Shown here piece by piece: positions 6,513 to 17,273 of a stretch of DNA of 19,433 bases; position 1 is the first letter of the stretch, and each line of letters starts with the position of its first letter. The stretch comes from Promethearchaeota archaeon (GTDB lineage: Archaea > Asgardarchaeota > Lokiarchaeia > Sigyniarchaeales > SOKP01), in assembly GCA_016839745.1 (NCBI GenBank), contig JAEOTS010000090.1, forward strand, positions 1 to 19,433, given 5' to 3'. Made by a program: the position numbers and the translations under genes. A model generated the notes under the pieces. It was not told where the DNA came from, ran no database searches, and was given only the letters and a program-made list of their open reading frames with translations.

Positions 6513-6794
6513 TCATCGAAATTGTGGTAAAATCTCGACAAACAATAATGCCATATTTTTTGGAAACAACCCAACTCTATCGCCATCTGTAACTTCCTTG
6601 CCAACTTCACAATATTTACCGTTTACAAATATATGACTAAGTTCATCTTCCTTTATTACAAGCTTTTCAAGAATATCATAAACTATATGAACTTCAGAAG
6701 GTTTGATATTGAAAGACACTGGAAGTCCTTCCTCTAAGTCAATTTCCTTTACATTTTCCCTTAGCTTCCCATACAACTTAACTAAAATAGACAT
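6513..6794 (-). CDS. MoaD/ThiS-fold (beta-grasp, ubiquitin-like) protein without terminal Gly-Gly
   Basis: From ATG 6794: MSILVKLYGKLRE...HIFVNGK...VTDGDRVGLFP matches the MoaD/SAMP pattern. The start was moved from the track's 6821 because the fold begins at MSILVKLY. Confidence 0.8.
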   Translation of the reverse strand: MSILVKLYGKLRENVKEIDLEEGLPVSFNIKPSEVHIVYDILEKLVIKEDELSHIFVNGKYCEVGKEVTDGDRVGLFPKNMALLFVEILPQFR

Positions 6795-6844
6795 CCTTAA
6801 TACACACCTATACATCAACAAGTTAAATAAGATAAAAATGTTTG

Positions 6845-6900
6845 TTTTATAAAAAATTAAAGGAAAATAATAAAATAAGATTAAAAAATATTAAAAAAAG
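6845..6900 (-). terminator. Oligo-T rich archaeal terminator region after the tes operon
   Basis: The minus strand just past the stop at 6903 carries several T runs (A runs on + at about 6851-6856, 6883-6888 and 6893-6899). Confidence 0.45.
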
Positions 6901-6902
6901 AT

Positions 6903-7190
6903 TTAAAGACCAAATAGTAAGAATTGATCTAAAAATTCTTGAACTTTTTTCACATTCTCTTCGCCAAGAGCTTTTTCTGCCTGGATTTTTAGATCCAAGA
7001 CTGTGCTCAGACTCTGGACGACCACATTTTGAATTGTGCTATTAAATATGGACTTCTGTTGGTTTTGTTTTTTGAAATACTCTACTCGATCAATCATAGC
7101 CTCTTGATATTCTTCCGCTGTGGTTGTTTTGAGTTCTACGAGTTTCCGTAACTTTAAACCGTCTTTGGTTTCGATTAATTCGTCCACCAT
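6903..7190 (-). CDS. Hypothetical 95-aa helical protein, translationally coupled to tes
   Basis: Its ATG directly abuts the tes stop (TAG|ATG). An SD-like AGGTGA lies in the last tes codons, 8 nt upstream. Composition is protein-like. Confidence 0.8.
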   Translation of the reverse strand: MVDELIETKDGLKLRKLVELKTTTAEEYQEAMIDRVEYFKKQNQQKSIFNSTIQNVVVQSLSTVLDLKIQAEKALGEENVKKVQEFLDQFLLFGL

Positions 7191-8933
7191 CTATTCATCA
7201 CCTAACTCCGTTTTCCTCATGCCTCCGTTCTGAGCGACTTCTTGCTGAATCTCTTCTCTGGATTGACCTCTTGTAGTGTCGAACTCTTCTCTGACTTTTT
7301 GCGTAATTTTTTTAGCTACCTGCTTCTCTATACTTTCACGATGGATTGTGTTCATCGTACAAAAACTTACCTCTTTAACAGAACCATCGGGCATTGCTAC
7401 GCCGAAATGAACGATACATCGTTTAACACGTTCTATATCCATGTTATATGCGTCTTGGAAGTGCATACTTGATAAAAGCAACGTACCGTGAGTGAATGAG
7501 CTAATACTTTCCCAATCACCATTCAATAATAGTCTACTGAACATTTCCATGAGTTTACCAGGCTTCTTGGTGTATTGCAATATCCCTAACAGGAATCGAG
7601 CTCGAAGTTGTGTTTTATCTAAAAAATCAAGACCGCTATCTAAAGTTTTACCCATGTCGCCTAGCATTCCTTCAAAGAATTTAACCGGTTGTTTTTCTTT
7701 ATGTTTTATTTTTTCCCAAAATCTGTTAGCGAAATCTATGACTTTCAGAGGATCGAAGTAATCCAAAATAGGAACCATCTCATTTGTCTCAGGATCAACT
7801 ACTAAGTATGTCGCAAAACCACAGTCAGGCGAGCAAGTAAATTCAACGGGTTCAACATCAGCGAGATAAGCTATAATCCTCCCAAATTCCACTATGGTGC
7901 TTAAGGGGTACCATGCTTCGTCCATTCTAATTTTACCGCCAGTTTGAGTTTCGATTTCCTTAATAACATCAGCGTTAGTAATTCGTAACTCGTCCATCTC
8001 TTCGGCTGTAATACGACCGCATAAGGACACAGGTTGGAAGGTTATCCCTCTTATAACATCAATATTATCAAGAGCAAACTGAATGATATTTCCAACTTCA
8101 ATATCCGTAATTCCTTTGACAATCGTAGCTACTAAATTAATGGACGATAATCCCGCTTTTCTGCAATTTTCTACAGCACGCATTTTGTATGGCATTAAAT
8201 TCTTAATGCTTCGTGTCTTCTCATAAGTTGCATTATTTATCCCATCAAATTGTAAGTATAAAGTATCCAGGCCCATCTCGTATACTTTCTTAGTCCACTC
8301 AAGCCCACCTTTTTTTTGCTGGAAACCATATCCGTTTGTAGCGACGATTACTTCTTGAAATCCATGATCTTTTGCCATTTTACAAATTTCAGGAAAATCT
8401 TTTCGAACTGTTGGTTCGCCACCAGTAAACATAATAGCAACAGCGGGAATTGGTTTGCTTCTGAAGTGTGTCATTATCCTATCGATTTCTTCTAATGATG
8501 GTTCAACTAAATATCCCGATTTTTGAACATTCGCATAGCAGAAATTGCAATTAAAATTACAACGGTTTGTTAAATCTATTAAAGCTAAAGTACAGGTTGA
8601 TAAATGTTCATTACATAATCCACAATTATAGGGACATCCTCTCTCGTCGTCTGAAGCACAATCGGCAGGATTTGCTTCGCCGTCTTTTTCAAATTGCCAA
8701 GCGATTGTTCCGTCCGTATTTTTCATTTGAAAATGAGTCCATTTGTAATATTTTGCGTCTGAGCTAATAATGTCTTTAAAATCGCCGTGTTCAGAGCAAT
8801 TTTTAACCATGAAAATTTTTCCGTCTTCTTCTTGAACTACAGCATCTATCCGTTGAAGACATTCAGGGCAGACTGATGCCGTTTTTCTGTAGTATTTCTC
8901 GTTTAAAACATTTGTTCCGTCTAAATGATACAT
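7191..8933 (-). CDS. tes: Tetraether lipid synthase (Tes / GDGT-MAS, MJ0619 family) radical SAM enzyme
   Basis: N-terminal rubredoxin-like SVCPEC...KNCSEHG, auxiliary-cluster motif GCPYNCGLCNEH, radical SAM motif TNRCNFNCNFCYAN, TGGEPT, YLQFDG, FQPVS, and C-terminal CSPDCG...MHFQDAYNMD.ERVKRC..H...FC.MN. This is the full domain signature of the family. Confidence 0.88.
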   Translation of the reverse strand: MYHLDGTNVLNEKYYRKTASVCPECLQRIDAVVQEEDGKIFMVKNCSEHGDFKDIISSDAKYYKWTHFQMKNTDGTIAWQFEKDGEANPADCASDDERGCPYNCGLCNEHLSTCTLALIDLTNRCNFNCNFCYANVQKSGYLVEPSLEEIDRIMTHFRSKPIPAVAIMFTGGEPTVRKDFPEICKMAKDHGFQEVIVATNGYGFQQKKGGLEWTKKVYEMGLDTLYLQFDGINNATYEKTRSIKNLMPYKMRAVENCRKAGLSSINLVATIVKGITDIEVGNIIQFALDNIDVIRGITFQPVSLCGRITAEEMDELRITNADVIKEIETQTGGKIRMDEAWYPLSTIVEFGRIIAYLADVEPVEFTCSPDCGFATYLVVDPETNEMVPILDYFDPLKVIDFANRFWEKIKHKEKQPVKFFEGMLGDMGKTLDSGLDFLDKTQLRARFLLGILQYTKKPGKLMEMFSRLLLNGDWESISSFTHGTLLLSSMHFQDAYNMDIERVKRCIVHFGVAMPDGSVKEVSFCTMNTIHRESIEKQVAKKITQKVREEFDTTRGQSREEIQQEVAQNGGMRKTELGDE

Positions 8934-11627: not shown

Positions 11628-12536
11628 CTAGATTATTTTTTTTTTAAACCCTGTGACCCTTTTCAACATAAATCCTAACATCCTGTCCTTATTTACTCCC
11701 CCATTGCATGCAATCTTATCTCCCAATTTAAACTTATCGCTGGAGTAAAGTTTCTCGCTTACCCTTATAATTAATTTGTCAACATTTTCAATATCTTCTT
11801 TTCTATAATCGCTTTTTTTTTTCAATTGGGGTCCGAATTCAATATATTTTAAGGTTATAAGATAATAAGTAGTTATATTCCCTTGGAAGTCATCCTCTTT
11901 CTCTGCTATGTCTGTTATTTCGGCTTCATAAATAGTGATTCTGTTGTGTCTAGCTAGAGGGGAACTAACAGCGCCTTCATTAATTAAGCTACCATCTTTA
12001 ATAACAATTTTTTCTACTTTTTTTTCAAAATCTTTAGGTAAAGTAGTAGTTTTCCAATCTGATAATTTAAAATAATTTTTCTTTAAAGAATAAATAAATC
12101 CAATCCAAAAATGATTACAAAATCCCATATTTGAGCCTACTCTACAATCGCAATCTCGTTCTGGATCATTGATGTTTTTTGGTGTTATCGATAAATACGA
12201 ACCCGATTTCCAATTAAAACCTTTGAAGTGTAACTCGATTTCATGGTTCTTATCGTTTACGACTTTAATATCTGTAATCGATTCTCGATCTTCACCATTT
12301 ATTTTATTAATTGCGGTATTTATTTCACTCGATATGATCTCTCCTTCTTTCTGTTGTAATAAGTCTGTTAATTCTTCTTCTGCGGAGGAATCAAGAATAA
12401 AATCTATTAGTTCTGATTTTTTAAATTTTGAAAACCCTTTTATTCCAAAATCCCGACATGTCTGTTTCAATTCGTCTAAATTTAGAGATTGGAGTAAATA
12501 TTTCAAATAAGTCTTATCATCAATTTCTCTATTCAT
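11628..12536 (-). CDS. Hypothetical nucleic-acid-binding protein: HeH/Rho_N-like N-terminus, SWIM-type Zn finger, OB-fold-like C-terminus
   Basis: LNLDELKQTCRDFGIKGFSKFKKSELIDFIL (Rho_N/SAP-like); CDCRVGSNMGFCNH (CxC-x8-CxH); beta-rich C-terminus ending KFKLGDKIACNGGV. Its stop abuts the pncB start. Confidence 0.75.
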   Translation of the reverse strand: MNREIDDKTYLKYLLQSLNLDELKQTCRDFGIKGFSKFKKSELIDFILDSSAEEELTDLLQQKEGEIISSEINTAINKINGEDRESITDIKVVNDKNHEIELHFKGFNWKSGSYLSITPKNINDPERDCDCRVGSNMGFCNHFWIGFIYSLKKNYFKLSDWKTTTLPKDFEKKVEKIVIKDGSLINEGAVSSPLARHNRITIYEAEITDIAEKEDDFQGNITTYYLITLKYIEFGPQLKKKSDYRKEDIENVDKLIIRVSEKLYSSDKFKLGDKIACNGGVNKDRMLGFMLKRVTGFKKKII

Positions 12537-13654: not shown

Positions 13655-13747
13655 CTAACCTATCTTTCTTTATTAAAAAAAAAGATCTATTTGATTAACA
13701 TATTATTTGACTAAAAAATTACAAAAAGGAAATAAGTGAACATAAAA

Positions 13748-13957
13748 ATGAGTGACATTACACCAGAATATTTGGATTATTTTGGCGAAATTAAATTCGC
13801 CGAAGAAAAGAGTTTAAGTGCACGCGATTTTGCAAGCTCTTTTATGAAACATTTTTCAAAAGAAGAGAGAATACCAACTGGGAGTTATAAATTCGCCGAA
13901 CTTAACAATCCCCGTATGAAAGATTTCGAGGATTCCTTTAATAGATATTTTGAATAA
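13748..13957 (+). CDS. Small 69-aa protein with internal tandem repeat
   Basis: ATG 13748 (the track starts at GTG 13736). It has its own promoter and a T-rich tail. The repeat KFAE-x5-xxDFxxSFxx[HY]F is preserved in frame at a 96-nt period. Confidence 0.72.
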   Translation: MSDITPEYLDYFGEIKFAEEKSLSARDFASSFMKHFSKEERIPTGSYKFAELNNPRMKDFEDSFNRYFE

Positions 13958-15171: not shown

Positions 15172-15618
15172 ATGACTGAAAAAGAAGCTTGGGCTTTACA
15201 GCTTGATTGGTTGAATATTGTATCGATTCTACGATTGGATACCATAGACCAAATCCCAGAAATTAAAAGAGATAGGGTTATTAAGAAAATTTCTAAACTT
15301 TATGGGGCAGAATCACTTCTTTCTTTCAAACCGAGTGAATTAGATGAATTAGTAGCAAATGAATTAAGAGAACTAATGAAAAAAGAACTGGTAATGCACG
15401 CTAGGCGAAAAGAGAAACTCGAGAGACAAATGAAAGCTAGGATGTCCCCTTTTAAGAATCAAGGAGTAATGAGGATTGATATGAACGAAATTAAAGACAT
15501 GAATCCTGACGAATTAATGAAATTTTTCTCTAAACAATTAATGGGTAAAAAAGACGATGACGATCAGGACGACGATAACGATAAATATAATGAAGATAAG
15601 AATTCATACTATATTTAA
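15172..15618 (+). CDS. Hypothetical 148-aa helical/coiled-coil protein with acidic tail and C-terminal YYI (HbYX-like)
   Basis: Clean ATG ORF filling the gap between genes; charged helix NELRELMKKELVMHARRKEKLERQMKARM; tail KKDDDDQDDDNDKYNEDKNSYYI*. Confidence 0.85.
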   Translation: MTEKEAWALQLDWLNIVSILRLDTIDQIPEIKRDRVIKKISKLYGAESLLSFKPSELDELVANELRELMKKELVMHARRKEKLERQMKARMSPFKNQGVMRIDMNEIKDMNPDELMKFFSKQLMGKKDDDDQDDDNDKYNEDKNSYYI

Positions 15619-15650: not shown

Positions 15651-17273
15651 CTAATTAATTTTATACTTTAAGTGCTTTAATTCGACTCTTTTTATGTTCT
15701 TGTAGAATAAAACGAATATTGCATATATTGTTGAGGACCATATAATCCAAGAAAGTGCTTGGTACGTATCTATGTTTAAAAAATAGTTAATGAAGTCTTC
15801 TAAAACATAAAACCCTAGATCTGTTAAGTCCCCTGGCATATCAACTATCTTTGGATAAAACTGAATTGCGATTGCTTCGTGTGTGTTATTTTTTAAGTTC
15901 TTAAAAATATTTGCAACAGTTTTATTGTTTGGATCATCTAATTTTAGCTTAGTAAAGGTGTTTAAATCTTCATTTGTGTGAATATCGGACCCTGCAATGC
16001 AAATTAAACTGTTATTCATGCAAAATTCACGAATTTCCGTGTATTTGTTGTAGCTTCCTCCATTGATAATTTCAAAACCATCAACTCCCCAATCTCTTAA
16101 TTGTTCAAGAGTATAGGGGGCACCAAATCCTCCTTCAGGATTAGGTTCATAATGATAATGATTTACCGTTATAAAGCCGCCATTAGCTTTTACATAACTT
16201 ATTAGCTCTGAAGAATTCATCACTTTAGGACCTCCAGGAGTGTAAGATTCGGGAGGAACGATTTCTTCCTCTAAACCAAAGTAATTCATATGAATTTCAG
16301 GGTTAGTTTCGTGATTTGTCCATTCTTCTGCTATCCAAACCGTAAAATCCAATCCGTTTTTTTCAACAAAGTCTCGAGCAATTCGAGCTCCTCTTATGTT
16401 ATCGTGATCAGAAAAAGCTGCACCGGATATACCATGCTCCATATACCATATAACTCTTTCTTCGGGAGTAAGCCATCCATCAGAAAAAATAGTGTGAACG
16501 TGAAAATCAAACAAAAATTCGTTGTCTTCAAGAGGTGTAGTGGGCACAATTCTATGAGGAGGGAATTGAATAGATAGTAAAACGATATTTGTGCCAAGTA
16601 ATAAAAGTATGATTCCAGCAAAAAAAACAGATTCTTTTGTCAAATTATAGGTAATTCTAGTCTTTTTTGAATTAGCTCTTCGAATATTATGCTCGATTTT
16701 CCTCGCAAGATTAAGTTTAAGCCTTGGATGGATTAGCTTTAGTAGCGTGTAACCAACTTTGATCCCTACTAAGATATAGCAAAGGTGTATTCCTATTTGA
16801 ATAGGAACCATGAAGTATCTACTGACGAAGAAAAAACCTTGAATTAAAAAACCTATTAGGATTATTAACAAAATTACTAGGAGCGTTATAGAAAAGACTT
16901 TAAATACAAAGTAAATGATATCTGTTATTATATGCCTAATTTGGTTATACTTTTTTGAATACAATTTCCCCCTTTTTCTTAAGAAAACATAAATAACTCG
17001 AATAATAGGGTATATTATTAATAAGGGTAAAAGCCAAGTAAACTCATATTCAAAGATAAAAGCGATTATTGCAAAAGGTTCAATAATATATCTAAACCAT
17101 GGTAGAACGCTAGAATACGCGGAAGAAACATCGTTTTGTCCAAGAGCATCGTAAAAGACTATCTTTCTTGGTCCTATTACTGCTAAAAAAACCAAAACAA
17201 CAATCCAAATAGAAAAGATTAGTGTTATTATCGAAAATACTTTATTTTTTAATAAAAAAGACTTTAGTCGCAT
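15651..17273 (-). CDS. Multi-pass membrane protein with PHP-family phosphoesterase domain
   Basis: PHP motifs DFHVHT..SDG, FSDHD, AEEW, VNH and GSDIH; several N-terminal TM helices and one C-terminal TM helix. Confidence 0.87.
   Translation of the reverse strand: MRLKSFLLKNKVFSIITLIFSIWIVVLVFLAVIGPRKIVFYDALGQNDVSSAYSSVLPWFRYIIEPFAIIAFIFEYEFTWLLPLLIIYPIIRVIYVFLRKRGKLYSKKYNQIRHIITDIIYFVFKVFSITLLVILLIILIGFLIQGFFFVSRYFMVPIQIGIHLCYILVGIKVGYTLLKLIHPRLKLNLARKIEHNIRRANSKKTRITYNLTKESVFFAGIILLLLGTNIVLLSIQFPPHRIVPTTPLEDNEFLFDFHVHTIFSDGWLTPEERVIWYMEHGISGAAFSDHDNIRGARIARDFVEKNGLDFTVWIAEEWTNHETNPEIHMNYFGLEEEIVPPESYTPGGPKVMNSSELISYVKANGGFITVNHYHYEPNPEGGFGAPYTLEQLRDWGVDGFEIINGGSYNKYTEIREFCMNNSLICIAGSDIHTNEDLNTFTKLKLDDPNNKTVANIFKNLKNNTHEAIAIQFYPKIVDMPGDLTDLGFYVLEDFINYFLNIDTYQALSWIIWSSTIYAIFVLFYKNIKRVELKHLKYKIN

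Follow-up and report, generated by a model that had tools for sequence, protein, structure and literature searches.

The 148-residue protein and its surroundings

The window, by which we mean the entire 19,433-nt stretch of Promethearchaeota DNA analysed here, carries on its forward strand an open reading frame that starts with ATG at 15172, stops with TAA at 15616-15618 and encodes a protein of 148 amino acids. The product ends ...DKYNEDKNSYYI, with the Tyr-Tyr-Ile-stop codons positioned at 15607-15618. An earlier note, made by reading the DNA letters, had drawn attention to this frame (15172-15618) and its YYI ending, and both were reproduced exactly. The gene and the regions of its product are as follows.

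15172..15618, + strand: complete coding sequence, 148 aa, 17.7 kDa, pI about 5.4
15172..15378, + strand: residues 1-69, compact five-helix N-terminal domain (AF2 pLDDT 90-97; conservation)
15379..15465, + strand: residues 70-98, long and highly basic helix that continues the last helix of the domain (AF2; charge +7)
15466..15549, + strand: residues 99-126, moderately conserved segment (pLDDT 53-73; entropy profile)
15550..15591, + strand: residues 127-140, acidic variable linker, predicted to be disordered (AF2; entropy; charge)
15592..15615, + strand: residues 141-148, E-D-K-N-S-Y-Y-I-COOH, conserved putative docking motif (conservation; synonymous codon variation)

The AF2 model of the protein, which was built on 18 homologues, comprises the five-helix domain (residues 1-69), a long helix that extends to about residue 95 and a weaker helical segment formed by residues 104-124. 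Residues 1-95 are modeled as helical with pLDDT values >90, in keeping with the helical N-terminal core that had been proposed from the sequence, and the N-terminal domain harbors four residues (W7, W13, I16 and L57) that are invariant across the family. Charge is strongly segregated along the chain: residues 70-98 have a net charge of +7 (pI about 11), and residues 127-148 have one of -7 (pI about 4). The basic helix displays a weak heptad pattern only. Residues 99-126 follow the pattern G-hydrophobic-hydrophobic-x-I-D ... P-D/E-E-L-x-K, and a short amphipathic helix is modeled here at low confidence. The acidic and disordered linker described in the earlier note is borne out by the model, in which residues 127-148 have pLDDT values <50 and neither fold back nor dock onto their own domain.

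A 204-nt AT-rich intergenic region precedes the gene, and 32 nt separate its stop codon from the end of a convergent gene. The neighbors in the window encode an alpha/beta hydrolase, a PHP-domain membrane protein, metallophosphoesterases, TetR, a Rho_N-domain protein, NAPRTase, a radical-SAM enzyme and a 73-aa ORF. No proteasome gene is present near the gene for the 148-aa protein; the proteasome genes of this genome are located on other contigs. Across genera, the Rho_N protein and the 73-aa ORF are the only recurrent neighbors, and as these genera form one family-level clade, this arrangement may represent inherited synteny.

The Rho_N protein (11628-12536, reverse strand) consists of 302 aa with an N-terminal Rho_N (SAP-like) domain as its sole domain, and it is the most persistent neighbor across genera (47-59% identity). 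The 73-aa ORF (13736-13957, forward strand) belongs to no known family and lies upstream of the gene for the 148-aa protein on the same strand. It recurs in this upstream position in most genera with 33-48% identity, sometimes with a hydrolase or HEAT-repeat gene intervening, and its product could be a functional partner of the 148-aa protein. The convergent downstream gene (15651-17273, reverse strand) codes for a protein of 540 aa. The N-terminal half of this protein is hydrophobic and multi-pass, and a PHP domain is matched weakly (E 6e-4). Next comes the gene for a 394-aa metallophosphoesterase; in more distant relatives, a gene for a 650-aa purple-acid-phosphatase-like protein is found directly downstream of the 148-aa gene instead. 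In the region 6513-8933 (reverse strand), the radical-SAM enzyme, which possesses a zinc ribbon of the HMPTM type, has as neighbors a 95-aa ORF and a ubiquitin-like protein of 102 aa (ThiS/Ub-Mut7C). Relatives again show the radical-SAM gene and the 95-aa ORF, and in none of the compared loci did we find the ubiquitin-like gene.

Distribution of the family and conservation of its C-terminus

A word-indexed search recovered 234 homologues at E<=0.01, and those carrying an organism name all stem from Lokiarchaeota/Promethearchaeota. An exhaustive HMMER search of 1.8 billion cluster representatives of all lengths returned 24 clusters at 50% identity; fused or longer forms were not found in this all-lengths search, in which the sole hit of that kind was a low-complexity match to a protein of 937 aa. 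Within the GTDB family to which the organism belongs (Lokiarchaeia), 61 of the 68 genomes, representing at least nine genera, carry the gene, and they do so in a single copy. The 234 homologues and the presence of the gene in most genomes of its own family refute the initial classification of the protein as an orphan.

None of the seven genomes from the sister family within the same order contains the gene, and it is essentially absent elsewhere among 301 Asgard genomes, in which three stray matches were encountered. Two of these are strong copies (G218:C267 and G295:C363) from genomes assigned to two other Asgard families. They reside on contigs of 2.8-3.3 kb, and contigs of only about 3 kb probably point to mis-binning and not to a true wider distribution. 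The third match is marginal and partial (E 1.7e-4). Confinement to one family-level clade speaks for a late, lineage-specific invention that was not inherited by eukaryotes, and this weakens the special interest that had been seen in the protein on account of the kinship of its host with eukaryotes.

With the query and 22 members of the family, searches of Pfam, NCBIfam and ESM Atlas produced no family match. Membership in PAC2 (PF09754) was rejected, as neither the query nor the 22 members had such a match in Pfam and the real PAC2 proteins of the genome score 1e-25. A proteasomal AAA+ ATPase (PAN, Cdc48/VAT) was likewise dismissed in view of the missing AAA match, the length of 148 aa and the all-helical model. 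The earlier note had recognized neither Walker motifs nor a PAC2-like pattern, and Pfam finds neither an AAA nor a PAC2 domain. No fold match at E<=0.001 was obtained in Foldseek-PDB and VIA-wide searches, either with the full model or with a model of the N-terminal domain only; the best VIA Z values (4.8-5.3) do not rise above the noise expected for helical domains. Peptide-binding domains of the MLLE/PABC type come up repeatedly at Z 4.0-4.8 and are no more than a weak lead.

PDB profile matches to the N-terminal region of eukaryotic uS19/eS15 reached E values of 0.006-0.03 only, and homology to uS19 was rejected after BLASTP and hhalign comparisons with the genome's own uS19 and with an Asgard uS19 alignment (hhalign probability 0.07-0.1). 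In the taxonomic family studied here, uS19 (contig C118; L128:1450-1980, reverse strand) is extended at its N-terminus by an acidic stretch of roughly 30-45 residues and has a length of 164-177 aa, versus 131-139 aa in other Asgard families. The uS3 protein encoded next to uS19 bears a long acidic C-terminal tail.

A three-residue motif at the end of a protein can arise by chance, as the earlier note had cautioned, and the bare Hb-Y-X ending indeed occurs at chance level in this genome: it is present in 50 of 3245 ORFs of at least 100 aa, compared with about 47 expected from composition, so that there is no enrichment. According to ProEnd, about 0.9% of archaeal proteins end in HbYX, most of them uncharacterised (PMC11475706). 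Since the bare ending is found at chance level, the case for a functional tail rests on its conservation and not on its occurrence.

Among the 120 homologues listed, 119 end in YYI, and the lone exception has the appearance of a frameshifted fragment. Members with 32-45% identity retain the motif, as do all genera sampled (nine genera), and the variants of the tail that we saw are limited to a single GFYI, a single SYHL and a single SYYL, the latter two occurring in proteins that are 86% identical to each other. The sequence-weighted entropy at E141, D142, Y146, Y147 and I148 amounts to 0.0-0.4 bits and equals that of the buried core residues W7, W13 and L57; the weighted frequencies of Y146 and Y147 are 1.00 and 0.96, respectively. 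Positions 132-140 of the linker have an entropy of 2-2.7 bits; positions 132, 136 and 138-140 reach 2.2-2.7 bits, yet their acidic character is retained. Across the family, 38-62% of the residues between -24 and -4 of the tail are D/E. The comparison of homologues that the earlier note had proposed consequently came out in its favor: the penultimate Tyr and the aromatic residue preceding it are near-invariant while the linker varies. The conserved block comprises eight residues (family consensus E-D-x-[N/T]-[S/G]-Y-Y-I, an HbYX or Y-Phi-type ending) and extends beyond a minimal HbYX motif, with D142 being invariant and E141 and I148 near-invariant. Codons within the motif vary synonymously (TAC/TAT, ATT/ATC/ATA, GAA/GAG), and hence selection acts on the protein. 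The gene is real, single-copy and under purifying selection at the protein level. Judged by these alignments, the tail clearly has the properties of a functional short linear motif carried by a tether that is flexible and acidic.

Alpha-ring pockets and the tails of proteasome partners

Studies with peptides on the human 20S proteasome identified NLSYYT as the optimum activating sequence; P3 must be Tyr, P2 is preferably Tyr or Phe, at P4 Ser works best with Gly being tolerated, the free carboxylate is essential, and the P3 Tyr hydrogen-bonds to the conserved alpha-Glu25 (PMC8907193). Set against this rule, the tails of the family have Ser or Gly at P4, Tyr at P3 (Phe in one member) and Tyr at P2 (His in one member), and the consensus [S/G]-Y-Y-I fits both the HbYX motif and, closely, the published Y-Phi rule. 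Y146-Y147-I148 provide the hydrophobic-Tyr-X sequence at the extreme C-terminus, and the segment carrying them is predicted to be flexible (pLDDT <50; variable acidic linker).

Two 20S alpha subunits and at least three beta subunits are encoded in the genome. The alpha subunits possess the pocket residues known from Thermoplasma acidophilum (Lys66, Leu21, Val24, Gly19, Pro17 and Glu25), whose roles in the alpha-ring have been described (PMC12352868, PMC8907193), and P18, G20, L22, V25, E26 and K67 (C82 numbering) show no variation in an alignment with both alpha paralogues among its sequences.

Known proteasome partners of the same genome have tails of related types. PAN ends in ..SRMYT, and the two Cdc48 proteins end in ..DDMYR and ..SNLYK. 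Two PAC2/Pba paralogues are present as well (contig C94:18154-18969 and contig C42:20972-21763), one with a classical HbYX ending (..KSLYI) and the other with an ending of the Y-Phi type with Phe at P2 (..SYFR). PAC2-A of this genome ends in ..TEDKRKSLYI; its tail reads [ED][ED]K[RK]KSLYI in 30 of 30 genomes of the family, likewise in the additional genera checked, and DK[ST][LI]YI in the sister family. PAC2-B has the ending [DE]SYFR in each of the eight relatives sampled, which represent eight different genera, as well as in the genome itself. The two types of PAC2 tails suggest two modes of recognition on one archaeal 20S with two alpha paralogues.

Jointly, the tails of PAC2-A and PAC2-B share with the 148-aa protein the Ser at P4, the Tyr at P3, the Tyr at P2, the Ile at P1 and the upstream E-D-K. 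A pattern that we defined post hoc, [DE][DE]K-x(1,2)-[STG]-Hb-Y-[IL]-end, is found among the 3245 ORFs in the 148-aa protein and PAC2-A only. The complex predicted from three copies of alpha C82 and residues 96-148 attained a score of 0.17 (mark 0.32), a value that speaks neither for nor against binding.

Candidate receptors of the tail

We tentatively view the 148-aa protein as the representative of a new family of tail-docking 20S adaptors or regulators, the most plausible of the readings considered here. The gene product would be a cytoplasmic, lineage-specific protein of the adaptor type, whose five-helix domain and basic helix bear an acidic disordered tether of roughly 20 residues. The tip of this tether, [S/G]-Y-Y-I-COOH, would act as a short docking peptide, and its likeliest receptor would be the pocket between subunits in the alpha-ring of the 20S proteasome. 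In such a complex, the terminal carboxylate would pair with the pocket Lys (K66 in T. acidophilum, K67 here), the P3 Tyr would fill a hydrophobic pocket (L21/V24/A154) and could hydrogen-bond to the conserved Glu25, and the P2 Tyr would bridge toward the Pro17 loop. Through this contact, cargo, another regulator or nucleic acid would be brought to the 20S by the N-terminal domain, which might instead keep the 20S at their location. With a single tail per chain, binding to the 20S would be weak unless the protein oligomerises.

We infer the 20S as the receptor and, in the same manner, any outcome of the docking, be it gate opening, tethering or inhibition. The earlier note had envisaged an ATP-independent gate-opener or substrate adaptor. 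Its assignment as a 20S ligand gains from the conservation of the tail, from the published rule for activating peptides and from the similar tails of the PAC2 proteins, and loses from the confinement of the family to one taxonomic family; a role as an activator is no better supported than one as an adaptor, tether, assembly factor or inhibitor. Points against docking on the 20S are the one homologue with His at P2, the neighborhood free of proteasome genes and the chance-level frequency of Hb-Y-X endings in the genome.

PbaB from Pyrococcus furiosus is an ATP-independent activator of the 20S that forms a homotetramer and binds via flexible C-terminal 'tentacles' tipped with HbYX (PMC3605417). 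The 148-aa protein would resemble PbaA/PbaB (PAC2) in its independence from ATP and in its flexible C-terminal segment that ends in a conserved Hb-Y-X. It differs from them in that it lacks a PAC2 domain, has half their size, is all-helical instead of forming a three-layer alpha/beta/alpha structure, possesses a much more acidic linker and is found in one family, whereas PAC2 is widespread. With Rpt5, PA200/Blm10 (YYA-type) and the NLSYYT peptides, it shares Tyr-Tyr at P3-P2, Ser/Gly at P4 and the free carboxylate. Unlike the Y-Phi peptides, it has an invariant Ile/Leu at P1, a position at which Thr was the most favored of the residues tested on the human 20S and at which Rpt5 has Ala (PMC8907193). 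Moreover, in contrast to the human system, its cognate 20S comes from an archaeon and possesses two alpha paralogues. Like PI31/Fub1 and other non-ATPase HbYX regulators, the 148-aa protein consists of a globular domain that is followed by a disordered C-terminal region with an HbYX-type end, and, as with these, the outcome of docking (inhibition, activation or a function as a transport adaptor) is not obvious from the sequence. It has no relationship to PI31/Fub1 in sequence or fold, and the tail of PI31 is proline-rich, whereas that of the 148-aa protein is acidic. On these comparisons, an HbYX-tailed ligand built on a new scaffold appears to be a credible, if still provisional, description.

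Acidic tails with aromatic or aliphatic ends are generic docking devices, as exemplified by the tip of bacterial SSB, by gp2.5 of phage T7, by the p97 tail that docks onto PUB/PUL domains and by the EEY end that docks onto CAP-Gly. The main rival, in our view somewhat less likely, is that a protein with the same architecture uses E-D-x-x-[S/G]-Y-Y-I-COOH to dock onto a non-proteasomal, probably lineage-specific partner, for which the Cdc48 N-domain, another reader of C-terminal peptides, the Rho_N protein or the product of the 73-aa ORF would be candidates. The conserved block of eight residues exceeds what a minimal HbYX motif needs, and a block of this length would equally suit a different and more specific receptor. 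In addition, the 20S is universal in archaea and the family occurs in one taxonomic family, so that a co-restricted partner would be natural, and Hb-Y-X endings are common by chance. The Rho_N gene and the 73-aa ORF adjoin the gene in most genera, but synteny within a single family-level clade may be mere shared ancestry. The last four residues match the experimentally determined preference of the 20S and the PAC2 tails of the lineage, which argues against such a partner. A PDZ-type reader of hydrophobic-x-hydrophobic C-termini was considered as a receptor and set aside, since neither PDZ_2 nor PDZ_6 turned up in the genome; an obvious candidate receptor other than the 20S is thereby removed, as far as a genome that is only 89% complete allows. 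By inspection, PCNA PIP box, MIM1 and LIR motifs were rejected, as the spacing of hydrophobic and aromatic residues is unsuitable.

We consider it unlikely that the 148-aa protein is associated with nucleic acids or chromatin, with the basic helix, alone or together with the five-helix domain, binding DNA or RNA and the tail serving self-regulation, either by auto-inhibition (as in HMGB1) or by recruitment through its tip (as in SSB and T7 gp2.5). In E. coli SSB (..DDDIPF) and T7 gp2.5, an acidic disordered linker leads to a partner-recruiting tip with an essential free carboxylate. The 148-aa protein resembles such tails in its acidic linker, its aromatic/aliphatic tip and the basic region upstream, and it differs from SSB-type proteins in the lack of an OB fold and in the sequence of the tip. 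The strong segregation of charge (basic residues 70-98 versus acidic residues 127-148) would suit this role, and so would the recurrent Rho_N (SAP-like) neighbor and a weak, non-significant resemblance of the fold to the ssDNA-binding domain of DnaT and to helical domains of sigma factors (Z 3.8-4.7). However, for helical domains such fold matches do not exceed the noise level, the family searches brought up no family that binds nucleic acids, and the AF2 model is devoid of a fold-back of the tail. Binding of nucleic acids would, moreover, be compatible with the tip also docking on the 20S.

A C-degron, or a latch for intra- or intermolecular self-assembly (such as the I-x-I of sHSPs), in place of a device that regulates another machine, is in our view very improbable: by general reasoning, conserved extreme C-termini can act as protease tags and a small, largely charged protein is typical of regulators with a short half-life, but an acidic spacer of roughly 20 residues followed by an eight-residue motif is more elaborate than known C-degrons, and AF2 shows no docking of the tail on its own domain.

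Returning to the 20S as the receptor, to our knowledge few ATP-independent partners of archaeal proteasomes are known, essentially only PbaA/PbaB, and the regulation of the Asgard 20S has not yet been studied experimentally. If our reading is correct, a new adaptor family would be added to the very short list of archaeal non-ATPase proteasome partners, and the recognition of a P3 Tyr (Y-Phi) described for the human 20S would operate in an Asgard archaeon. A wider proposal, to which we give a rather low likelihood, holds that the 148-aa protein founds an undescribed ATP-independent family of 20S ligands of the Lokiarchaeia with a eukaryote-type Y-Phi ending, and that it belongs to a larger, lineage-specific Y-Phi-tailed set together with PAC2-B (..SYFR) and a family of 166-aa proteins (..S-Y-[Y/F]-S). 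Should this set be real, the 'human' P3-Tyr mode and a multi-adaptor 20S network would already exist in an Asgard lineage. The evolutionary reach of either proposal is limited, as the restriction of the 148-aa family to one family-level clade says little about the ancestor of eukaryotes.

The 166-aa family has no Pfam match and is represented by two paralogues (contig C116:10130-10630 and contig C17:38576-39076), of which the copy on C17 shares its strand with a Cdc48 gene and lies about 0.9 kb downstream of it. Its tail reads S/T/D-Y-[Y/F]-[S/A/T] in 28 of 29 homologues of the same taxonomic family, and the 166-aa protein may be another tail-docking protein that is associated with the 20S or with Cdc48.
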